Positions 2,454-62,336 of a stretch of 64,000 nucleotides of DNA are shown piece by piece. Source of the DNA: a virus. Its lineage: Duplodnaviria; Caudoviricetes. The stretch lies in IMG/VR virus record IMGVR_UViG_3300045594_000145, positions 1 to 64,000 of that record; one strand, 5' to 3'. The position numbers and the translations under genes are program-made. Numbering within the stretch: position 1 is the stretch's first letter; the number at the start of each line of letters is the position of its first letter. The notes under the pieces were generated by a model, which saw nothing but the letters and a program-made list of their open reading frames with translations, did no database searches and had not been told where the DNA came from.

Positions 2454-2946
2454 AACCAGAAATCCTTTCTTCTGAGATTTCTTCCTCTTGATCAACGGTA
2501 ATGTAGTTCATTATTACTGCCTGCGCGATTCTTTCTCCTTTTTTGATTAATATATCATATGGAGAAAGATTAATCATTGCGACTTTAATTTCATTTGGAT
2601 AATAGTCTGAATCTACTGTGCCAGGAGTATTAGGTATAATTAGTAGATTCTTTGTTGCAATACTACTGCGGGGTCTTATGTCAAGAACATCATTTTGCTG
2701 TCCTTTATAAGTTATTCCTGTCGGAACTAAGGTTGCTTTACTCCCAGTAGCTTTAAGTAATTGTGCAGATTCTTCCAAGGTAAAAAATTGGTCTCTTTTC
2801 GCACAAGAAAAATTTAACGATGGGATCAAGATATCTTCAGAAGCACATAAATCATATCCAGCGCTAAATTTAGTTGCTCTTTTAGGAAGAGAAGTTCCAG
2901 CTGGAGCATTGGTAATTAATTCAAATTTACGCATCTTCTTCTGCAT
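2434..2946 (-). CDS. dut: Trimeric dUTPase
   Basis: SAGYDL, RPRSS, GTVDSDY, ERIAQ, RISGFGSTG motifs I-V. Confidence 0.95.
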   Translation of the reverse strand: MQKKMRKFELITNAPAGTSLPKRATKFSAGYDLCASEDILIPSLNFSCAKRDQFFTLEESAQLLKATGSKATLVPTGITYKGQQNDVLDIRPRSSIATKNLLIIPNTPGTVDSDYYPNEIKVAMINLSPYDILIKKGERIAQAVIMNYITVDQEEEISEERISGFGSTGK

Positions 2947-3163
2947 GAGTCTCGGCTCCGATTAAGGTTTTAACATCCTCGACTCTTTCTTTTAATGTAA
3001 CAATCCAGCACTCAGATGTTTTTGTAGTTGGCTTTTTGTACTTCACAGAAGAATTTTCAATGACCTTTTCTTTGCGATTCTTGTCTACGAAATCATATGC
3101 TGCGGTCTCGGAGAAAAATAATGTTTCAGTTGTTGTTGATAATAAATAATTTTGTTCACTCAT
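2927..3163 (-). CDS. Hypothetical protein
   Basis: ORF with RBS, in operon orientation. Confidence 0.6.
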   Translation of the reverse strand: MSEQNYLLSTTTETLFFSETAAYDFVDKNRKEKVIENSSVKYKKPTTKTSECWIVTLKERVEDVKTLIGAETHAEEDA

Positions 3164-6809: not shown

Positions 6810-9021
6810 TTTTCTTCACTCCAACGGCATCGCCAATTTCTTCTCCGCCTAAGTGAACGTATCTATCCTCAATTTCATTAGTTCTTCCATAATTCCAATA
6901 ATGTGAGCCAATATATCCGCAAGTACGTCTAGCTACATTCATTTTAGATTGATCAGTATTTCCGCAATTTGGGCAATACCAACTCATATCTTTAGGATTA
7001 ATTTTTATTTCCCCTTCATATCCGCAAACTTGGCAATAATCTGATTTGGTATTAAGTTCAGCGTACATAATATTATTATATATAAACTTTATCACAGAAA
7101 TTACTGCTGGAATATTTTGTGTTAAATCTGCGCATTCAATATAGCTGATTGCTCCTCCAGGGCTTAATTTTTGGAATTTACTCTCAATACTTAGCTTTGT
7201 AAAAGGATCAATCTTTTCAAAAACTGGAATATGATAGCTATTCGTAATATATTCTCTGTCTTTCCCATCTAATTTAATAAAAGCATCTTCACCAAATCTC
7301 TTCTTGATAGCTTTCGCAAATTTATAAGTAGTTGATTCAATAGGAGAGCCATATAAACTATAATCAATGTCTTCTTCTGATTTCCATTGATTACATTTAT
7401 CATTTAATTTTTTCATTACTTCTAGGCCGAATTTTTCTCCAACTCCATTGTCGCTTTGAGAATTACCCGTCATGTATTTAACACATTCATATAACCCCGC
7501 ATATCCAAGGGATATTGTAGAATAACCATGATGAATTAAATCATGTAACTTTTCTCCTTTATCCAATCTTGCAAATGCGCCAGCTTGCCATAAAATAGGA
7601 GCTACATCAGAAGTAACCTGTTCTAACCTATTAATTCTAACTTGCAATGCTTTATGACATAATTCAGTTCTTTCTTCAAATAACTTCCAGAAAATATTAA
7701 TATCTCTTTCTGAACTCATAGCTAAATCAACTAAATTAATAGTTGTCACGCCCATATTAAATCTTCCATAATATTTATCTTTTTCCGGATTATAATTATT
7801 ACATTTACTATAATTTTTAGTCGTTCTATCTGGAGTTAGGAAAGATCTGCACCCCATACATGGATACACAGCTCCTTTATATTCTAGCATTTTCTTTGCT
7901 GAGATATAATCTGGAACCATCCTCTTAGCAGTACATTTTGCGGCCAATTCTGTTAAATACCAATATGGGCTATCTTCACTAATATTATTTTCTTCTAAAA
8001 CATATAATAACTTAGGAAAAGCCGGAGTGACGTAAACTCCTTTTTCATTCTTCATTCCCTTAATTCTTTGTTTAAGAAATTCTTCGATTAACATTGCTGT
8101 TTCTTTAGTGTATTCTGGATTTTCTGACAAATACATATTAACAGATAAGAATGGCGCTTGACCATTTGTTGTACTCATACTGTTTATTTGATAATTGAAA
8201 GTTTGAACTGAATCTTTTATTTCTTTTTTTGTATCTAAATCTGCAAATTTCTTTGCTTCTTGCTCATTCATGCCTCTATTAATATATTCATTATAATGTT
8301 CTTTCCAAGTCCCACGGATAAATGGAGACAGATGTGAAAGTGAAATGCTACACCCGCCAAATTGCGATGATGCCACGGCAGTAATAATTTGAGTCGCAAC
8401 TGTCATAGCCGTCGATAATCTCTTTTGAGGGTCAATGGTCACGCCATTAATTACAGTACCATTATTCAACATATCATCAAGGTTAATTAAGCAACAATTT
8501 GTTAAAGCCATCTGAGCCATATAATCCATATCATGAACATGAATTATTCCGGCATCATGAGCTTCTCTTACATCTTTTGGCAAAAGAAATCTTCTTGCAA
8601 TATCTGTAGAGGTAATTCCAGCAAGATAATCTCTCTGAGTTGTTACTACATTTGCATCTTTATTTGAATTTTCATGTGTCCAATAATCATTCCTTCCACA
8701 CAATAATTCTAATACTGCGCCATCTGTAATACTTCCTCTTGCGATAGTTCTTGCACTTCTATAATTAATATAGGCTTTTGCCACATCTTTTCTCTTAGTT
8801 GACATTAATCCATTTTCAACAAGATCTTGGATCTGTTCAACTGTTAGTGGCTCCGCAGATTTGTTAGCATTTTCTTCTACATATTCTGCGATGTTATGAG
8901 CCTTTGTGATAGCATACTCGGTCGTTTTGCCATCAACATCTGCAAATGCCGCAAGTACAGCATCTACAATTTTTTGCGGGTTAAATTCTACTTTACGCCC
9001 GTCTCTTTTTACAACGTACAT
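6802..9021 (-). CDS. nrdD: Class III anaerobic ribonucleotide reductase
   Basis: ATP-cone (VVKRDGR), [16 protein letters not shown], Zn-binding CQVC..CPNC, RRTCGY glycyl motif. Confidence 0.97.
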
Positions 9022-9049: not shown

Positions 9050-9616
9050 TTAAGGATTTTGATTTATTTGCATCATATCTTGAGCAATCTTTATAATGTC
9101 TCCTTCAATCCGGTCAAGATCGAGAACATCTTCATTCTTATAGATATAATCATAAAATTTACCTATTTCTTGGAAATCTTCTTCGTCTGCTAGAAATCTG
9201 CGGCATATCTCATGTGTGTCTGGCTTATCTTCTCGTTCTAATGCTCTTAAGAGCCTAATTTTACCATCTACACTTATGTATATAACCTTTAGAATAAATA
9301 CTTGAGGTAAATCTCTCATAGTTTTTAATTCAGAGAGCGTAAAGATTCCAATGTTTACTTTATCTTGCGATAAGTCATCCATTGAAACCCCATAATGCCA
9401 TCCTCTAAACTCATTTGAAATAAGCCAACCTTTTTTCGACCAATCTGCATCTGATATGAAGTGATACGCATCAAGAGATTCATTATCTCTCTTTGGTCTT
9501 GTGGTTGTTCGTATAATTTTATGCACGGTCTCAGAAGCACGACTAGCAACTCCATCTAAGATGGAATCTTTGCCAGCCGCACTCGGGCCGATTATAGCAA
9601 TAACTTTATAAATCAA
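9050..9616 (-). CDS. gmk: Guanylate kinase-like protein
   Basis: GPSAAGKD P-loop, TTTRPKRDNE, YHFIS, WHYG. Confidence 0.85.
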   Translation of the reverse strand: MIYKVIAIIGPSAAGKDSILDGVASRASETVHKIIRTTTRPKRDNESLDAYHFISDADWSKKGWLISNEFRGWHYGVSMDDLSQDKVNIGIFTLSELKTMRDLPQVFILKVIYISVDGKIRLLRALEREDKPDTHEICRRFLADEEDFQEIGKFYDYIYKNEDVLDLDRIEGDIIKIAQDMMQINQNP

Positions 9617-12600
9617 GCTTCTCCTCCTTGACCATATCGAGTGGAAGTATATTTTATATCTCCATTTTCTTCTACATCGGTAATCAAATAGATACGATGT
9701 TGCTCAATAGTGTCTTTATATCTTTTAGGAACAAAGGAATCTGCTCTTCTGAAACCTATAATCATAACTTTATTCCCAGTATTAAACCAAGACTTTTCAC
9801 GCACTTTCTTAACACCATTAACAACTTCAGAAATTTGCTTATTAAAGAAAGCATAATGTTCGTCAGATAGTTTAACATTAACAACTGAGCCATCTGGTGT
9901 TAATATTGTAAAACTCTTAGCAATATTGTTCTTTGAAATAACGGTTCCAATAATTTTATTAATCTTAAAGATTGGTATTTCCCTACCTTTGATATTATAA
10001 ACTCTGTCTATGATAGGATCTTCTGGTAAATCAGCATAGTTAGAAAGTTGATATTTATCAGAATTTACAATGGACAATTCATGCTCGTGGAAGTATATTC
10101 CCATACTATCCATTTCCCATTTAGAAATATTACCGATACAATATTTATTCCATGTAACATTAAATTGATATTCATTAAATTTAGATAATAATTCAGCTAA
10201 ATTCTTTGAAATATAATCCTTTGCGGGCAACATTGCTTTATCATAGACTTTTCTTTTCCAAGTCTTTGTATCTAATATGATATTATTGTCTTGAATAATA
10301 GTATAATCTTCATATCCTTGATAATTCTCAGATAAGAAAGCCTTTGCTCTATCATCAAGAAGATATTTATCTTCTCCAACCTTAAATTGTTTTAACTTTA
10401 TATACTTGAAGAAATTAAAAGTTCTTCTTTGTAAATCTAATTCTTGCGGAACCAAATTTCTTTCAATTAACCCGCTGAAATTACGCATATTTAATGTTGT
10501 TTTTAAATCTGCAATATTCTTAATATACTCTTTCATCAAATCAATTCTTGATACATTCTCTAAAGAATCAAACGCTCCCGCTTTAATTAAAGCAATAATA
10601 GCTGGTTTCTTAATTCTAACTCTATCATAGAAATCTGCAAAATCTTCATAAGGTCTATTATTAATAATTTCAGTTATCTCTCCGTCACCAACTCCACGGA
10701 GTCCTTTGAGCGCATAGACAATCTGTTCATTATCTGGGTCAGGAGTAAAACCACCTTCTGCAATATTAATATTAGGAGGAATAACTTTAATGCCGGCTGA
10801 TTTGATTTTGTTTAAAGCAACGGCAAGTTTACCGTAGTTGATAGCGCGGTTCTTCTTTTTATCGTCATTAACTTCTTCTTCATCACTATCATCTCCGCTT
10901 ATTTCTTGATAAGTATCAAAAGCAGAGATAGAATCACTATCTACAATTAAACAAGCGGTATCCCAATAAATAGGGTTCCAATGAGTTGCTAGATATGCAG
11001 ACTGATAGCCAATAATTGAATATGATGTGGAGTGGATACATTTAAGATTATTAAACTGACTATTTCTTACTGATTTTGTGAGAAGGTTTAGTAGACCTTC
11101 ATCAGCACACTGTTTCCAAGAACATATCAATAGTTCTTGTACTCTCCGTCTAACCAGAGATAGTCGATACAACGTTTCCATTTTATAGGATTTGTCACGA
11201 GATTTTGCCCTCGTTAGCAACTACAATATGTCTTTACTAGAGACATCAATTCATCAAATAGTTACCCCTGTGATAAGCAGGTTAAGTGTGTAAGCGCCAT
11301 CACAACGCTAAAGCCATAGCCCGCAGAGGGCATGACTACATAATTCCACTCATATTCTCCAAGCGCTTTAGATTTTGCACTTGCTAATATCTTTTCTCTA
11401 AGGGCAGGAAGTTTATCCATCTTTTTCTTAGAGATTACTTTTCTTGCGGCATTCGCATCTTTAAGAGAGAACCCGCAGATATCTGGATCAATAAGTGACC
11501 ACATGATTTGCTCTTGTGAAATTGCAACCCCATGTGATTCAAGCATATATCTTTCCATGACTTTCTGTTCTTGTTCATTTAGACCTTCTTGGCGCATTTC
11601 ATCGTACCAAAGGCTAATATCTTGTTTATATCGAGCAAACTTTTCAAGTGGCCGCTCTTTACCATCTTCAGCCATCAATCTAATTACTCCATTTGTATAA
11701 GATAAATCAGTAATTGTTTCTGGCTGAACAGTCTTAATGCCTTGACTACCTACATTGGAGTCAAACTGGAAGAAAGAAAGAATTTTACCTTCTTTAATCT
11801 TATCCCAAGTATCTTTATCATTCAGATTAAGATTATCTGGATGTAGATACTTCTCATAGGCTTGCCGCAATGTTAAATCTGGATCTATTTCACCATACTG
11901 CTGCAACAGTTGGATTGTTATTTTAATTTTATCTTGTATTGAAGTTAAAAGAAACGTGTTCTTCCATTATTTCTAATGGCACTGACTATATCTTCACCTT
12001 TTTTAAAGGGGGAACCACTTCGAGCGGTAGTTCATCATCCGCCCTAACCATATTTCGATGGATAGTCGATAGACTTTCCTAGTTATTTACTAGGCTTAGC
12101 ACTGGATTGCCTTCAGCATTATCTGTAAGGTTTCCCTGTTAGCAAAGGAATAAATCAGCCATTTCCTGCTGAACTTATTAAGTTCCTTCACACCTCTGAA
12201 CAATAGAGTTCAATTCCTTTCAATTACTTATCTCTAAGTAATAGGACTTTACTTATTTCAAATCATATTTCGTTAAACCTGCGGCTTCCGCAGATTCCAA
12301 ATCATATTGTGTTTCAATATCTCCACTAGGAGTTTTCATATAACAGCAAAATTCATAGGGGTCTTCATCTTGGAAAATAACTCCGCTTGCATGACTACCC
12401 CTTGATACTATAAGTCCTTCGACAGAGAGCATAATATCAAGTAATCCATCAAATGAGTCAACTTCTTTAACAAACGAAGGCAGTCTTCTGCGACCCTTTG
12501 CTTCATTACCATAATAGGCATCTTTAAGCGGCCAAGTGAATCCTCTTTCAGATGGAATAAGTGATGAAAGATATTTTGCAGTATCATCATCAATACCATC

Positions 12601-14154
12601 TGGATATTCTTTGGTTTTATATCCTTTACAAGCAATCTGAATTGCTCTTCTTGAAGAGGCGGTTCCGAATGTAGCAACTAATGTAGCTCCTAATTCTTTT
12701 CTAGCAAAATCTTTAATATCAGAATTAAAGTTTTGTCCACGCTCTTCTTTAATACGCTGAATAATCTTTGGTCTTACTGATGGACACAAGTCTAAATCAA
12801 TATCTCCAAGACCTTGCGTATCTTTATTCATATATCTCTCAAATAAATCTTGATGAAGTGCTATAGGATCGGTCTGCGTGATTTTCATCAGGTAATGGTT
12901 TAGTCCTGCGCTCGAACTCCCTCTTCCACACCCCACGGTAGACCCTTCATTCCAAAATGTATCTACATAGTGCTGTAAAGTAATAGGATAGTCGAACATG
13001 TTTGTGCCAAGTCTAGCACCGACAACTCTTTTAATATCGGCTTCTTTTTCAAGTTCCTTATAATAAGCAGGCTGTTGTAATTTTTTTTCCTTTAATGCTT
13101 CTTGACATTGATTTATCCAATATCTTTCTGATTTATCATCTGAGGTAAACATACTTGATAATATTGGGTATTCTTTTTGAAATTCAAGAGGAGGAGTTTT
13201 CTTAGGATAATCTTTGACTTCTACTCTAGGAATTCTTTGAGGATGCCGCAGATCATATTCAGTAATTTTGTCAAATATCTCCTGTGCGGTATCACAACAT
13301 TCTTGATATACTCTTTCAGTATCTTCACCAAAAGCTGCCCCTAGATGCTTTAATATTTCTTCTTCTGATTGAAGGTATGAATAGTGATAAAAACTATCTG
13401 TTTCACGTTCTCCATCTTTACTTCTTAAGAAAGCTGCATGAACGTTTCTTTTGTCTGCTCTTTCATAATGAGCGTCGCAAGATGTTTCAATTTTGATATT
13501 CTGACTGTGAGCAATCTGATACAATTTTTTATTTACTTCTATTTGTTCTTTAGATGCGCCCGGCGGTATTTCAATATAAAAGTCATCCTTAAATATATCT
13601 TTACACCAATCTAAGAAAGAAATAATTCTGCTATAAGCAAGAGTTTCTTCTTCTTTATTTGCTTTTTCTCTTGCCATTATTAACTGTTTTACATTTGCGG
13701 ATAATTCCCCGGCAAGACAAGCAGTGGTTGCAATCAGATGGCCAGGGTTTCCTCTAACGATCTTTTTGAGTTCACTTTTAAGAGTTGGCACTCTTTCAAG
13801 ACCTCTATCCGAATAAGCTTGGAGCCATGATTCAGAAGAAAGTATCCGCAACTGTTTATGTCCAATTGCATCTTTTGCAATTAATAAGAAATGATAATAG
13901 GGTTGTTTTGCGCCACGTTGTTCAACTAAATAGATTTCATTCCCAATACCTAATTTTAAATCTGGATACTTTTCGCGCATTTCGCATATCTTAATACTGG
14001 CGCTTAGACATTCATGGTCAGTATAAACAAGACCTTTCAGACCTATCTCTTGCGCTCTCTCCGCAAGAGATTCATGCGTATTAATGGCATCTATGAGTCT
14101 TAAATTTGAATAGTCTGTATGATTATGTAAATCAATTACTCTCTTATTTATCAT
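9613..14154 (-). CDS. dnaE: DNA polymerase III alpha subunit, 3 exons (14154-12262, 11954-11305, 11038-9613; ~1322 aa)
   Basis: PHP domain (LHNHTDYS, TDH), GRGS, DIDLD, HASG; splicing restores GLTKYD|FLL and GYGFSVIHSTSY in frame. Confidence 0.93.
11039..11304 (-). mobile_element. Group I intron 2 in dnaE (266 nt, no ORF)
   Basis: P1 AGCGU/GCGCU with U.G at 5' splice site; P7 GACUA/UAGUC (GTATCGACTATC, AAGAAATAGTCAG); terminal G; in-frame exon join. Confidence 0.88.
11955..12261 (-). mobile_element. Group I intron 1 in dnaE (307 nt, no ORF)
   Basis: Exon GAU pairs with intron GUC (U.G); CTATCGACTATCC and AAGATATAGTCAG core; terminal G before TTT CTT TTA. Confidence 0.9.
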
Positions 14155-38964: not shown

Positions 38965-39560
38965 GGCGACTTAGGCTGAGAAAATTGACCTTCATTTACT
39001 TACATCCTTGCTCGGTTGGCCGCGCAATTTCACACAACTGTTTTACAATTGTAGTAAGTATCGACACTGGTTTTGTGAAAACCAGCAAACTCTTACTATA
39101 TCCTCAGATAACTTTCCTTTCCTAACAGCTCCCCTTGGAAGGGTTCGATAGCTCCCGCCACCTAAGTTAAATTAGTAATTGTACTTGTTTGCCCTATACC
39201 TTGCGAGCTAGTAGCATCTGTATGTTACAACAGAATAAGTCGATATGTCAGAATATAGTCGAGCACGCTTTTGCTTTTGTTAGAAAACTTTTCAATATCC
39301 AATTGATTTTTCATATTTTCATAAAAGTTTCGCGTAATAACGATTTATTAGTCGATGTGGTGCTCGTTCGGTATCCCACTCTTTTGGAGTGGATCCAACC
39401 AACACCGCCTTCCTTTCGCGTCACCTACTCAGTTTATTTGCTGTTTACAAGTGATGTTTCAATCGACTCGTTGCAAATAATGAAGCCCGCACTTAAGTTT
39501 GACGAACTTTGCACGAACAACCTCTATCCGTAATCGTATATTTCTATACTTATTTACCGG
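38965..39560 (-). ncRNA. Large structured ncRNA, ROOL-like (boundaries approximate)
   Basis: No sense ORF between promoter 39872-39900 and terminator 38845; many hairpins; GAGTAGG, CTCCAAAAGAG, GCAAAAG, GCTCGCAAG and 3' GAAGG..TCTCAGCCT segments resemble ROOL as I recall it; not verified with a covariance model. Confidence 0.55.
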
Positions 39561-39730: not shown

Positions 39731-39803
39731 CTGAGAATTTAGCTTATTGACCGAAGTCATAATTTCTAGGCAATACCACGTAGAGGTATCTCAATCATTG
39801 CCC
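39731..39803 (-). ncRNA. HDV-like ribozyme A
   Basis: P1 GGGCAAU/AUUGCCU (G.U), P2 UGAGA/UCUCA, P3 ACC/GGU, L3 UCUACGU, P1.1 CU/AG, P4 UUCG hairpin, J4/2 GCUAA. Confidence 0.8.
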
Positions 39804-49625: not shown

Positions 49626-50285
49626 TCACTTCTCGCAGAAGTCACAAACTTTAACCTTAGTGACAATGCGGCGCCCTCTGCGGTCACGCAATTCAAGAAT
49701 AGGCTTACAGACAAGGCCTTCCATCACTAAAGAAGGATCCTCAGCAACAAGAGAAGTAGGCTTTGTCTTGACAAAAGCAATAGCTTCAGCTAGTGTCGCA
49801 GAAGGAAGTACAACTGGGGCCGCAGATATACCAAATTTAGTGGCAACATCTTCAACATCCTGCCGAGAAAGGTATAGGTCGCCCTCAGGGAAATATACAT
49901 CAAAGAGCGCAAAGCCGCAAGAGTCGTGTAAATATCTTCCTCCACCCTTTTGAATCTTCGCCCCATAACCTTCTCCAAAGAGAATAACCTGAGTCGAGCC
50001 AAAGACTTGCTCAAAGAGTTCCTCGGTGTTAGAGTCTCCAAAAGTAGAAGTCAAGTAGAAAACTAGATTAGAAGGAAGTTGCGCCCTGTCAGTGTGTCCC
50101 GCAAAAGATACTCGATGCCCATCCCAGATAACTCTGGTATTAGTTCCGTCAATTTTTTCAGTGCAACAGAATGGCAAGTCTTTAATAAACTCAAGTTCCT
50201 CAGAACGATATGCGCCCTCTATTAACCTCTTAGTCCCATCTTCCGCTCTGCGGAATGGAGTTTCTATCTTTTGATATTCAATCAT
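49626..50285 (-). CDS. ATP-dependent RNA ligase (Rnl2-like nucleotidyltransferase)
   Basis: TEKIDGTN, FGEGYG, FALFDV, EGLV, TKVK. Confidence 0.8.
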   Translation of the reverse strand: MIEYQKIETPFRRAEDGTKRLIEGAYRSEELEFIKDLPFCCTEKIDGTNTRVIWDGHRVSFAGHTDRAQLPSNLVFYLTSTFGDSNTEELFEQVFGSTQVILFGEGYGAKIQKGGGRYLHDSCGFALFDVYFPEGDLYLSRQDVEDVATKFGISAAPVVLPSATLAEAIAFVKTKPTSLVAEDPSLVMEGLVCKPILELRDRRGRRIVTKVKVCDFCEK

Positions 50286-53124: not shown

Positions 53125-53415
53125 TTAGTTGTCGGCCTTCAAATTATAAATAGGATATAAGTGATCAAGAACCTCCGCAGTAGGCGCGATTAATTCTTCA
53201 ATCTCTGCGGCGTCCTTATAGGCATCTGGGGCTTCGTCTAAAGTATTGGCAGAAACAGAGGTAGTAACAATATCTTCCATCTGCTCCTTATAGGCATTGA
53301 GATCAATTGTTGCCTTAGCAACTGTTCTACTCATTGCGCGACCCGCGCCATGTGGGGCTGAGCAGTTCCATTCTTCATTCCCTAGACCCCTACAAATTAG
53401 AGTGCCGGCGCGCAT
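53125..53415 (-). pseudogene. rtcB: C-terminal fragment of RtcB RNA ligase
   Basis: GLGNEEWNCSAPHGAGRAMSR, DEAPDAYK, PIYNLKA; N-terminal part absent. Confidence 0.8.
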
Positions 53416-59157: not shown

Positions 59158-59289
59158 GTGTTTTCTCCTTTGCGGCCCTTGCTGCCGTCTTACTACTGCG
59201 TCTATCACGCAGGAAAAACCTGCCGAAGCAGGTTGTATGCGTAAATGATATATACGTAGAATTATCCCAGTGGATTATCATTTACGACT

Positions 59290-59374
59290 AGAGAATTGGT
59301 TCTTCTACTTCGGCGGCGAACCGCTTCCTTGAATTAGTAGACTGCGCCGCATAGAGGCTTCTCTTATGCAGTCC
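59290..59374 (-). ncRNA. HDV-like ribozyme B
   Basis: P1 GGACUGC/GCAGUCU, P2 AGAGAA/UUCUCU, P3 GCC/GGC, L3 UCUAUGC, long P4, J4/2 CCAA; P1.1 partial. Confidence 0.7.
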
Positions 59375-59544
59375 TAATCAAATCATAATACACATACTTC
59401 TCAGGTATGCCGAGGCTTATTTGCACTGGTCATGACTCCACGCTTATTCGCCATTTCTGCCGCAACCTACTTTCATCGCGATGTCCAGTAAGTTCTTTTG
59501 GTGTAACCATCCTAACAGTAAGGACTGGTAAGATTTGATTGTGA

Positions 59545-59610
59545 TAGATTTAGTTCTCTCGCCCAAGAGCAAGTCCAGCCGCACCCCGTGGAGGTATCTA
59601 ACTTGCGGCC
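59545..59610 (-). ncRNA. HDV-like ribozyme C
   Basis: P1 GGCCGC/GCGGCU, P2 UAGAU/AUCUA, P3 ACC/GGU, L3 UCCACGG, P1.1 CC/GG, P4 CUUGCUC/GGGCGAG, J4/2 CUAA. Confidence 0.8.
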
Positions 59611-59859
59611 ACCCGCTTATCTTATTGAAAGCGGTAGAAAGTCAGTTTTGCTCTTTGAAAAGCTAAGTCAACCTGCCGCCGCAGGATTTAAAGCGTACGC
59701 AACTCTTCTTTTTGGTTAAGAGAGGTATTGACGAGAGAACCGCCCCACGTCTGGGGACTTAGTGGCTTAAGCTTTGACTTCGTACAGTGCTACACTAACT
59801 GAAGTCTAGGCGTTAGTATGTCATTACATTGCAGTAATGGATACTTAATCCTTGTATTT

Positions 59860-59932
59860 TGGGTACGTCTGGAATCGAACCAAAACCTTCTCCCCATACA
59901 AGAGGAGATGCACAGCCACGCACTGTATACCG
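59860..59932 (-). tRNA. Degenerate tRNA-like element (TGT loop)
   Basis: T arm TTTGG TTCGATT CCAGA, TCTCCTC/GGGGAGA stem, GGTAT/GTACC acceptor-like pairing. Confidence 0.45.
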
Positions 59933-59959
59933 TCAGGGTCTTTCACCAAAGGATTATTT

Positions 59960-60030
59960 GTAGAACTTTGTTTAGTCTGGAGCTACCAAATTGTCCACTC
60001 TCGCCACGGGGAGGCGTCTACTATGAGAGC
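59960..60030 (-). ncRNA. HDV-like ribozyme D
   Basis: P1 GCUCUC/GAGAGU, P2 GUAGA/UCUAC, P3 GCC/GGC, L3 UCCCCGU, P1.1 CC/GG, J4/2 CAAA. Confidence 0.78.
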
Positions 60031-60086
60031 ATATAGATTGCGCGGTTACTTACTTGGGCGCGCCAATGAACCGTCTGCCGCAATCT

Positions 60087-60140
60087 TGATGTATTAGTTG
60101 GATATCCAGACACGCCACGAGGAGGCTACATCATGTGTCC
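60087..60140 (-). ncRNA. HDV-like ribozyme E (minimal, 54 nt)
   Basis: P1 GGACAC/GUGUCU, P2 UGAUGUA/UACAUCA, P3 GCC/GGC, L3 UCCUCGU, P1.1 CC/GG, J4/2 CUAA. Confidence 0.85.
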
Positions 60141-60608
60141 ATCCCCTTGCCTAGGAGCTACCTAGACAGGAGTTATATGCTTTCCCTAAGCAGGGGCCGA
60201 AGCCCAAGGGGTTAGTTCGCGTGGGAAACTACCAAGGTGCTAAATCCGATCGGTTGCGCGCAATTTTCCTGACACTCTTTAGACTCGCGAGGAAAATTTC
60301 TAATTCTACGAGCAAGCTTTTCTCTTCTTTATACTTGGTGAGCGTTCATCCAAGCGGCGTTTACTTCTTTATCCTCGCATAAACACCAAAACGCGAGTCG
60401 GCCGCAGGCCGTTTATCCTTTAATTTTACCACTAGAGAAGTAGGAATATGGGTATGTTCACTCGCGGAACATACAAGTAGCGCTTTGCTCTAATCACGGG
60501 ATAGAGGTACGAGATCGGCAGTTCCTGTTTACCGCAAAGGTGGAGGTTTAGGGGTGCGTGAACCTGTTTCTTTCAATTATAACGCCCGAAGTTCTAAGAG
60601 GCAGCTTA

Positions 60609-60938
60609 TTACTTATTAGCTTTATAATTCTTCCAGAAATCGGAGTTGACTATAAAGTTATTCATATGGAGATAGAAGTTATCACTATAACCGGTTGCCG
60701 CATTAGTCATGTGATACTGATCAAACCATGCTTCTTCACTGTAACCATTTGCTCTATCGTGGAAAGTAACACGATACACTGAATTGACGCCACTGTGGTC
60801 TTCATACCTATTATCGTATCTTTCATGGATAACCGCGTAGAAGCGACCTTTGTAAACGTCCTTTTCTATTTGTTTATTCATGTGACGAACAGCAGTTCTA
60901 GCGCGTCTTTTATTCGCTCTTACTTTTTTGTCTATCAT
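60609..60938 (-). CDS. Hypothetical protein
   Basis: ATG 60938 after GAGGGAG; promoter 60964-60992. Confidence 0.65.
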   Translation of the reverse strand: MIDKKVRANKRRARTAVRHMNKQIEKDVYKGRFYAVIHERYDNRYEDHSGVNSVYRVTFHDRANGYSEEAWFDQYHMTNAATGYSDNFYLHMNNFIVNSDFWKNYKANK

Positions 60939-61001
60939 GTTAACTCCCTCACTTTCTATATATATTATATCATAGATTTTGAAGATTGTCAAGCAGATGT
61001 T

Positions 61002-61057
61002 TGATGATTCTCAGTAGAAGAGCAGTTGCGCCGCGAGCAGGCGATCATCATGCAACC
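61002..61057 (-). ncRNA. HDV-like ribozyme F (minimal)
   Basis: P1 GGUUGC/GCAACU, P2 UGAUGAU/AUCAUCA, P3 GCC/GGC, L3 UGCUCGC, compensatory P1.1 GC/GC, J4/2 CUGA. Confidence 0.75.
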
Positions 61058-61109
61058 ATATGGGGAGCCGTCTGGCAAACGACTCCCAGCAAAAGAGAGA
61101 GTATACAAA

Positions 61110-61171
61110 CGAACTTTTAGAACCCGAAGGGGTAGCCGCATTGCCACGTCAAGGCAAGTTCGATAATGCGG
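61110..61171 (-). ncRNA. HDV-like ribozyme G (variant)
   Basis: P1 CCGCAUU/AAUGCGG (C-G first pair), P2 CGAACUU/AAGUUCG, P3 GCC/GGC, L3 UUGACGU, UUCG P4, J4/2 CUAA. Confidence 0.62.
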
Positions 61172-61203
61172 GAGTCAATGCCCCGAAGGGCATCGACCGA
61201 TAA

Positions 61204-61572
61204 TTACTTAGCGAGACTGTAAACCTTAGTCTTCTTCTCGCCGTCTGCTGAAACAGCCTTACCAGCCTTAACAAGAGCTGTTAATGCGCCGATAGCCTGA
61301 GCAGTTGTGATGTTAGCCTTAGCTGCGATATCCTTAGAACCTGCTGGTTCATCAGTCAGAACCGCAAGGACTGCGGCCCTACGAGCTTCAACTTCAGGAT
61401 CAGCCTTACGGACTACTGGGTGAGCCTTACGATACTCCTTAACATGAGCATCCTGTTCGATCTTTGCATCAACCCAAGCTGCCAGTTCAGCATCTGTATT
61501 TCCATTAGCGGTGAGGAAGTCCTTAATCATCTGTAAACCCTTAGTGTTAGTGATTTTTTCTGTCTTTTCCAT
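61204..61572 (-). CDS. Winged-helix DNA-binding protein (paralogue)
   Basis: KADPEVEARRAAVLAVLT..SKDIA..ALTALVKAG. Confidence 0.7.
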   Translation of the reverse strand: MEKTEKITNTKGLQMIKDFLTANGNTDAELAAWVDAKIEQDAHVKEYRKAHPVVRKADPEVEARRAAVLAVLTDEPAGSKDIAAKANITTAQAIGALTALVKAGKAVSADGEKKTKVYSLAK

Positions 61573-61797
61573 GATTTTCTTTTCGAGATTTTATAATCTC
61601 TTTCCCTTTCTTATAAGTACATTATACCATATAATTTTGAAATCGTCAATAATTTTTTTGTAAGATTTTTTCTTTGGGAATTTTCCCTTTCCTTACCTTA
61701 CATAATAATTATAACATATTTTTTTGAGTCTGTCAACAACAATTTATTTAAGCGATGAGAGGAAGTGCGCGCTGGGCGCACTTCCGATCAGTGAAGG

Positions 61798-62160
61798 TTA
61801 GGCATTAACCTTGTAAGTATTCGGCTTTTTGCCATTGTCGACCTTAGTGATAGAACCTGCCTTAGCAAGAGCAACCAGAGCCGCAGATGCCTGACCAGCA
61901 GTTAAGCCAGTCTTTTCAGCAACTTCCTTAGAGGTCATCTCATCAGCAGTTAGAACTGCAAGCACAGTAGCCTTTCTTGCTTCGACTTCTGGATTAGCCT
62001 TTTTAACAGCTGGGCGCGCGGCGCGTCTAGCCTTTACCTTTTCCTCAGCTTCGATTCTAGAGTCGATGAAATCAAGTAACTCCTTCTGATTCTCAACGTT
62101 TGACGCCTCAACCAAAGCCTTTACCTCTGCAAATCTCTGTTCATTAGTAACCTTTTTCAT
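61798..62160 (-). CDS. Winged-helix DNA-binding protein (paralogue)
   Basis: KANPEVEARKATVLAVLT..SKEVA..ALVALAKAG. Confidence 0.7.
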   Translation of the reverse strand: MKKVTNEQRFAEVKALVEASNVENQKELLDFIDSRIEAEEKVKARRAARPAVKKANPEVEARKATVLAVLTADEMTSKEVAEKTGLTAGQASAALVALAKAGSITKVDNGKKPNTYKVNA

Positions 62161-62336
62161 GATGTTATTCTCCTTATTTTTTACATTTATATTATAACAT
62201 AGAATTTTTAGTTTGTCTACAATGACTTTTGGGGAATTTTCATTGTTGAGTGTAATTCATAAGGTTTTTATTACCCTTCCCCTACCTTATATAAATATTA
62301 TACCATAGAATGTGAAGATTGTCAACAACAACTTAA

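Follow-up and report, generated by a model that had tools for sequence, protein, structure and literature searches.

A tandem pair of HDV-like ribozyme motifs between a phage early gene and the next promoter heads a six-unit array

The virus record IMGVR_UViG_3300045594_000145 is a 108,945-bp genome with direct terminal repeats, and the window analysed here is its first 64 kb. Within the window there are some 20 tRNA genes, together with a GOLLD-like RNA and a putative group I intron, and the replication genes share about 30% amino-acid identity with known phages, indicating a distant relationship. The intron-like match (11963–12221, minus strand; E 4e-7, below the gathering score) sits between ORFs 12253–14154 and 9613–11220, which have PHP/Pol III alpha and HHH_6 matches, so that a gene for DNA polymerase III alpha may be split here by the intron. 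A blastn comparison of 60600–62200 with a phage GenBank set found no relative, and direct IMG/VR searches with the 122-aa protein described below and with an exact 20-mer of the upstream ribozyme gave no match.

Between 58 and 64 kb, small ORFs on the minus strand form a block of early type, and a consensus scan places a near-perfect TTGACA-17-TATAAT promoter ahead of each of them. The 122-aa ORF at 61204–61572 (minus strand) is adjacent to its paralogue, the 120-aa ORF at 61798–62160 (minus strand), and each has a consensus promoter of its own. The 122-aa product, a probable winged-helix protein, had been labelled wHTH in the original prediction. In the profile search it gave weak DprA_WH and TrmB matches (DprA_WH E 0.005, under the curated cut-off), so the label applies weakly to this protein and more firmly to the paralogue, whose DprA_WH match reaches 24.9 bits against a cut-off of 22.9. 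The paralogue gene is followed by a hairpin at about 61785–61761 with a poor U tract, and by no ribozyme.

Two putative sigma-70-type promoters, identified purely as consensus matches at 61736–61708 (12/12) and 61649–61621 (11/12) on the minus strand, are positioned to transcribe the 122-aa gene and then the ribozymes. The next putative promoter (60992–60964, minus strand; a perfect 12/12 consensus with TG) begins with its -35 box 10 nt past the downstream ribozyme and precedes ORF 60938–60609 (109 aa), an arrangement supported by the gene calls in related loci. Along the minus strand, the order is ORF 61572–61204, hairpin 1, C61172, the upstream ribozyme, a spacer, hairpin 2, CAUAU, the downstream ribozyme and the promoter.

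As predicted, the 122-aa gene is followed by a GC-rich hairpin. Hairpin 1 (61198–61173, minus strand) starts 5 nt past the stop codon, has 11 bp and a UUCG loop, is very stable in the minimum-free-energy fold, and ends 1 nt before the first predicted cut site. The predicted hairpin between the two ribozymes is likewise present: hairpin 2 (61087–61063, minus strand) has 9 bp and a 7-nt loop, and is followed by CAUAU (61062–61058) and the second cut site, 5 nt from its end. No RNA family in Rfam matched hairpin 2. A reading of it as a tRNA T-arm or minihelix was dropped, as its loop, UUGCCAG, does not have the C56/A58 pattern of a T-loop and the tRNA search made no call at this place. Ahead of hairpin 2 lies a pyrimidine-rich spacer of 22 nt (61109–61088, minus strand), the CU run of which is invariant among relatives. 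An anti-Shine-Dalgarno role for this spacer was also dropped: its pairing with the ribosome-binding site of the next gene, at -14.2 kcal/mol, was equalled by 72 of 1000 shuffles.

The two HDV-like folds, at 61171–61110 and 61057–61002 on the minus strand, are complete nested double pseudoknots and match a strict motif descriptor. Both follow the order P1-P2-P3-L3-P3'-P1'-P1.1-P4/L4-J4/2-P2', both form a P1.1 of two pairs, and both carry a C-N-R-A J4/2 (CUAA upstream and CUGA downstream). The spacing between them is also as anticipated, the RNA from 61171 to 61058 between the predicted cut sites being 114 nt long.

The downstream element (61057–61002, 56 nt) is by its fold a textbook minimal HDV-like (theta) ribozyme, and is predicted to cleave between 61058 and 61057. 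Its P1 of 6 bp (61057–61052 with 61029–61024) opens with the G61057•U61024 wobble that is expected at +1, and its P2 of 7 bp (61050–61044 with 61008–61002) contains the usual mismatch beside P3, giving 0/1/0 mismatches in P1, P2 and P3. The GCC/GGC P3 (61042–61040 with 61032–61030) closes the L3 loop UGCUCGC (61039–61033), which has the 5' U and the C-G of the family. In P1.1, the GC within L3 pairs with the GC following P1 (G61038–C61022 and C61037–G61023). A 7-nt L4 (61021–61015) takes the place of P4, and C61014 in the J4/2 (61014–61011) is the candidate catalytic cytosine. This element also fits the refined minimal theta descriptor that was rebuilt from segmented matches.

The upstream element (61171–61110, 62 nt) is of a different type, which we call C1. 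All four of its helices are perfect in the window copy, with 0/0/0 mismatches in P1 (7 bp, 61171–61165 with 61142–61136), P2 (7 bp, 61162–61156 with 61116–61110) and P3 (GCC/GGC, 61155–61153 with 61145–61143). The L3 loop UUGACGU (61152–61146) has the 5' U and, near its 3' end, the C-G that correspond to HDV U20, C24 and G25, and its ACGU ending is the commonest among theta L3 loops. The P1.1 consists of one G–C pair plus a U•U (G61150–C61135 and U61151•U61134), and is followed by a 13-nt P4 hairpin (61133–61121) and by the J4/2 (61120–61117) with the candidate catalytic C61120. The predicted cut lies between 61172 and 61171. However, the first pair is C61171–G61136, in place of the G•U or other purine–pyrimidine pair found at +1 in HDV-like ribozymes. 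The original prediction had noticed both a compensatory GC/GC P1.1 and a C–G first pair, which do exist, but, going by the order of its coordinates, had interchanged them: it is 61057–61002, starting with G•U, that has the GC/GC P1.1, and 61171–61110, with a P1.1 of G–C plus U•U, that has the C–G first pair.

To scan the genome, we rebuilt the descriptor in a script from the segmented theta-ribozyme listings that Kienbeck et al. (2024) give in their supplementary tables. In the 108,945-bp genome, all six matches to the strict descriptor were on the minus strand, which is the gene strand, and the plus strand had none. By chance, 0.2 matches would be expected per shuffled genome (mean of 40) and 0.004 per shuffled 2-kb region, confirming that both elements of the pair are real HDV-like motifs, far above chance. 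The remaining strict matches start at 39803, 59610, 60030 and 60140, and a weaker one starts at 59374. The other six motifs all begin with G1•U, the upstream element alone having C at +1. No helix sequence is common to the seven motifs of the phage genome, and they are thus not recent copies of one another.

The pair opens an array of six ribozyme motifs that ends at 59289. The tandem arrangement that had been predicted is present, but it is not a stand-alone device. The other four units (60140–60087, 60030–59959, 59610–59543 and the weaker 59374–59289, all on the minus strand) are found within 59250–60608, a stretch of about 1.35 kb on that strand that contains no credible ORF. A tRNA-Thr at 59932–59860 was called there by ARAGORN only. 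The unit at 60140–60087 is letter-for-letter identical to isolated theta ribozyme 1934 (Kienbeck et al., Supplementary Data 2), and so directly ties this phage lineage to the published family. Among the related contigs, the intergenic length varies from 1094 to 2199 nt, with modules gained, lost and replaced; the segment 59845–59766, for example, is absent from contigs L003, L006 and L007. Outside the array, the canonical HDV-like motif at 39803–39731 (minus strand) is followed after about 320 nt by a GOLLD-like RNA (38973–39410, minus strand; Rfam E 3.5e-24, below the gathering score).

Across the whole window, no HDV-family match by Rfam attained the gathering score. With E values up to 10 allowed, it returned nothing at 61002–61171, and the sole HDV-family match was a weak HDV-F-prausnitzii hit at 59961–60030. 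This null result counts for little, since the Rfam models cannot score the pseudoknot.

The 122-aa protein belongs to a single 90% cluster with 64 members from metagenomes. We fetched 14 metagenomic contigs carrying its gene, and aligned the window with 12 of them in 13 rows. The flanking ORFs have 10.6–17.1% segregating sites in this alignment. In the 81 nt made up of hairpin 2 and the downstream ribozyme, a single site segregates; it is located in L4, and hairpin 2 itself has none. The variants of hairpin 1 all preserve pairing, G•U being replaced by A–U and U–A by U•G. The upstream ribozyme occurs in two forms among the relatives, one of which is that of the window. Six contigs share the second form, in which L3 is longer by one U and a U•U replaces the seventh P1 pair; the L3 of genomic HDV is likewise 8 nt long. 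A one-base deletion in P4 among the relatives leaves the upstream P4 hairpin intact, and contig L001, which diverges most, has lost P1 pair 2 of the upstream ribozyme as well. Given the variation in L3 and P1 and the mismatch in L001, the sequence constraint is clear on the downstream unit and weaker on the upstream one. Part of the intergenic conservation could be due to the adjacent promoter or to recombination.

The terminator scan called no intrinsic terminator in 61000–61210, between the stop codon of the 122-aa gene and the next promoter, and the first convincing minus-strand terminator downstream is at about 58853–58828. Since no intrinsic terminator intervenes before the next promoter, transcripts begun at the 61736 and 61649 promoters very likely extend into both ribozymes. 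Alternatively, transcription might stop at hairpin 1, or this hairpin might be a nuclease or stability element, leaving the motifs beyond it scarcely transcribed and idle. The great stability of an 11-bp hairpin so close to the stop codon is in keeping with such a role, and hairpin 1 does resemble an intrinsic terminator both in being a GC-rich hairpin right after a stop codon and in its proposed role at the 3' end. However, a terminator has a U tract and leaves a 3'-OH, whereas hairpin 1 is followed by CCCGCAUUAUCG, with no U tract and no call by the terminator scan, and the end predicted here is a cyclic phosphate. Moreover, the 81 nt of hairpin 2 and the downstream ribozyme are more constrained than the ORFs, which would be unexpected, the promoter apart, of untranscribed DNA. 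We therefore regard a stop at hairpin 1 as very improbable.

As for direct evidence of transcripts, 24 public RNA runs were listed, all as contigs, and four metatranscriptomes were compared with the region. Coverage in these four was low and patchy, with no RNA ends or joints reported, in libraries that may contain DNA. One contig (60923–61117) spans the second cut site, a point against cleavage there that is tempered by the possible DNA in its RNA library.

The C at +1 of the upstream element raises the question of its activity. Pyrimidine–purine pairs at the cleavage site reportedly misfold in genomic HDV. In CPEB3, the G1A change lowers cleavage from 92% to 3% (PMC8233481). The upstream element might be a slow or inactive fold in the 3' UTR, with the downstream ribozyme the only one to cleave; the mRNA would in that case end at 61058, and no 114-nt RNA would be released. 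The CPEB3 effect indicates that the +1 base can matter, the C1–G first pair is non-standard beside the G1•U kept by the other six motifs of the genome, and the upstream element varies among relatives (with the P1 mismatch in L001) where the downstream one is near-invariant, with one variable site in L4. Against these points stand the four perfect helices of the window copy and the recurrence of the C1 type elsewhere.

We scanned IMG/VR twice for this type. The first scan used the upstream P3-L3-P3 word with a C seven bases later. Among the matches listed, it gave at least 111, of which 31 are complete HDV-like folds, with at least 22 unique sequences having C1–G37, the L3 UUGACGU and 'CU' after P1. 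The second scan, with ACC/GGU as P3, gave at least 27 unique folds, 24 with C1–G37 and 3 starting with G, so that the rule was replicated with a different P3. In total, the C1 type comprises at least 46 unique IMG/VR folds from unrelated phages, with L3 UUGACGU or UUGACGC and an intact J4/2 C. A MAFFT alignment of these ribozymes was rejected as it lost the helix register, and pairs were counted in register by a script instead. In the first set plus the window copy (23 sequences), P1 positions 2–7 show three to six pair types each and are canonical in 21–23 of the 23, and P2 covaries likewise. As compared to the canonical type, both stacked active-site pairs are swapped, with C1–G37 on G22–C38 in place of G1•U37 on C22–G38.

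The C1-type elements, among IMG/VR loci L016–L234, occur in several settings. One element (L029:6185–6257) directly follows a tRNA-Tyr, its first base adjoining the terminal ACCA, the same layout as in the tRNA-linked theta ribozymes, and this is a position where only cleavage makes sense; the same locus has U1–A37 variants at 202–271 and 6914–6982. Further examples are L095:2426–2481, L095:2893–2949 and L185:5326–5381. The last is from an unrelated phage contig of 178 kb, in which a C1-type unit is followed 143 nt on by a G1-type unit, in a mixed array lying among tRNAs and noncoding DNA with few long ORFs. Near C1-type ribozymes in L025 (ribozyme 2380–2433, GOLLD 2736–3134) and L093, GOLLD RNAs were found above the gathering score. 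Rfam searches of four loci with C1-type elements returned no ribozyme family at the gathering score, and six P1 words of the C1 set were absent from those sequences of the theta supplement (Kienbeck et al. 2024) with which they were compared.

By these sequence comparisons, the C1 type is a recurrent and apparently undescribed HDV-like subclass, and the upstream element is an ordinary member of it rather than a decayed copy. This membership raises our estimate of its activity, and we consider that the upstream element probably cleaves. The covarying helices and intact J4/2 C in unrelated phages, together with the position at the tRNA CCA end, make it unlikely that only the downstream ribozyme is active. 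A broader proposal is that the C1 type is an unrecognised natural subclass with strand-swapped active-site pairs and a conserved U•U, that it is catalytically active and common in phages, and that it serves both tRNA 3' trimming and, mixed with G1 units, the terminator-free dicing of early or noncoding transcripts into hairpin-ended modules; taken as a whole, we see this proposal as evenly balanced.

Minimal HDV-like ribozymes of gut phages were reportedly described by Riccitelli et al. in 2014. The theta ribozymes are an HDV-like family of Caudoviricetes, class members of which cleave in vitro (PMC10879173). Both elements resemble them in their segments, which include a P1 of 6–7 nt, a short J1/2, a 7-nt P2, a 3-bp GCC/GGC P3, a 7-nt L3 of the form U-NN-NCGY, a 2-nt P1.1, a short L4 and a C-N-R-A J4/2, as well as in their Caudoviricetes host. 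The downstream element fits fully, including the published combination of a GC/GC P1.1 with CUGA, with the same P3, L3, P1.1 and J4/2 words. The upstream element differs in its P1.1, in retaining a real P4 hairpin of 13 nt, and in its C at +1, as opposed to the G of all listed theta sequences. Neither 61171–61110 nor 61057–61002 was found among the entries compared from the tables of Kienbeck et al. In tRNA-associated theta ribozymes the cut is at most 5 nt away from the 3' end of a tRNA. Here, neither element is preceded by a tRNA, and both fall into the 'isolated' category; they are distinguished by lying behind an ORF, in tandem and at the head of a six-unit array. Kienbeck et al. (2024) found 526 non-tRNA matches in noncoding DNA, in the sense orientation with nearby genes and of unknown function (PMC10879173), and the words 'tandem' and 'array' are absent from the main text of that paper. 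The family is already known, and what is new is the C+1 subclass and the occurrence of a tandem pair at an mRNA end as part of an array of six.

The active-site variations of the upstream element have partial precedents. HDV, CPEB3 and the Ackermannviridae phage ribozyme share with both elements the same nested double pseudoknot, a J4/2 that opens with the catalytic C, and the U and G of L3 that pair as a reverse wobble. The P1.1 of active CPEB3 is one Watson–Crick pair plus a U•U (PMC4836649), and so, in the crystal structure, is that of the Ackermannviridae ribozyme, which cleaves at 4.2 per min (PMC13635239). However, all three have a purine at +1, as opposed to the C of the upstream element, and in HDV and CPEB3 the G•U wobble helps to bind Mg2+. 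Clustered hammerheads in the polycistronic RNAs of prophages offer a second comparison: all of them cut during transcription, and it was proposed that they cut the RNA into segments that differ in stability (Perreault et al. 2011; PMC3088659). There, as here, a phage-type operon has several ribozymes of a self-cleaving kind within some 2 kb, but the ribozymes are of another class and flank genes, whereas the present pair lies between a stop codon and a promoter, followed by noncoding RNA.

An ORF annotated 'RNA ligase, DRB0094 family' is enriched in phages with theta ribozymes (PMC10879173). The present genome encodes a 219-aa protein (49626–50285, minus strand) that matches the RNA_ligase family PF09414 at 57 bits. 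A 96-aa ORF (53125–53415, minus strand) matches only the last 100 or so positions of RtcB, also at 57 bits; the N-terminal part of RtcB was not found near 53125–53415, and this ORF may be a fragment or a stand-alone domain. The C-terminal match of 96 aa is too little to assign an RtcB end-joining enzyme to the genome, and this candidate was dropped. A CCA-adding enzyme (PF01743) was not found in the phage genome.

These observations suggest how the pair could work. Transcription from the two promoters ahead of the 122-aa gene would encounter no terminator and continue into both ribozymes, each of which would fold during transcription and cut at its own 5' edge. Cleavage by HDV-family ribozymes leaves a 5'-OH and a 2',3'-cyclic phosphate. 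The cut by the upstream C1 element, at 61172/61171, would leave an mRNA ending in the 11-bp hairpin plus a single C with a 2',3'-cyclic phosphate, and the downstream cut, at 61058/61057, would free the 114-nt piece comprising the upstream ribozyme, the spacer and hairpin 2. Any read-through RNA continuing into the next gene, which has a promoter of its own, would keep the downstream ribozyme as a structured 5'-OH cap. The stable hairpins 1 and 5 nt before the cuts may shield the new 3' ends; in genomic HDV, upstream hairpins stop the upstream sequence from misfolding the ribozyme. In this scheme, the pair would form mRNA 3' ends without a terminator, would insulate two early transcription units from each other, and would head a six-ribozyme array that dices the early transcript.

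Such trimming of the mRNA is plausible because there is no terminator and each predicted cut closely follows a stable hairpin, at 1 nt and 5 nt respectively. The original proposal that ribozymes define the mRNA 3' end in place of a terminator thus fits the anatomy, including the location of both elements on the gene strand, while cleavage, the end chemistry (from the HDV family) and any stabilising effect of the new ends are what we infer. Another reading accepts that both ribozymes cleave but places the selected role in a noncoding-RNA processing array, which would yield hairpin-ended modules or ribozyme-capped 5'-OH RNAs, with the upstream gene being incidental. The four further motifs in the ORF-free stretch, the gain and loss of modules among relatives, the similar mixed array in L185 and the invariance of hairpin 2 all accord with it. 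Nevertheless, the 114-nt piece is mostly ribozyme, its hairpin has no RNA family match, and the pair lies exactly between the stop codon and the next promoter, a position that fits mRNA-end and insulator duty. We consider an exclusively noncoding role quite unlikely, although the two readings are not exclusive of each other. On the whole, we moderately favor the complete mechanism, in which the tandem ribozymes cut the mRNA of the putative wHTH gene, form its 3' end and insulate the next unit.

The work of 2024 tied phage HDV-like ribozymes to tRNA 3' ends and left several hundred isolated ones without a function. The present locus offers a concrete candidate role for the isolated ones, namely terminator-free 3'-end formation and the insulation of strongly promoted early genes, and, as members of an array, the conversion of a long transcript into defined pieces. 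Short natural cassettes of ribozyme and hairpin between promoters may also be ready parts for insulating transcription units. If active, the C+1 subclass would widen the sequence rules of the HDV active site, since the wobble at the cleavage site would not be required, and its members would escape motif searches that fix G at +1.
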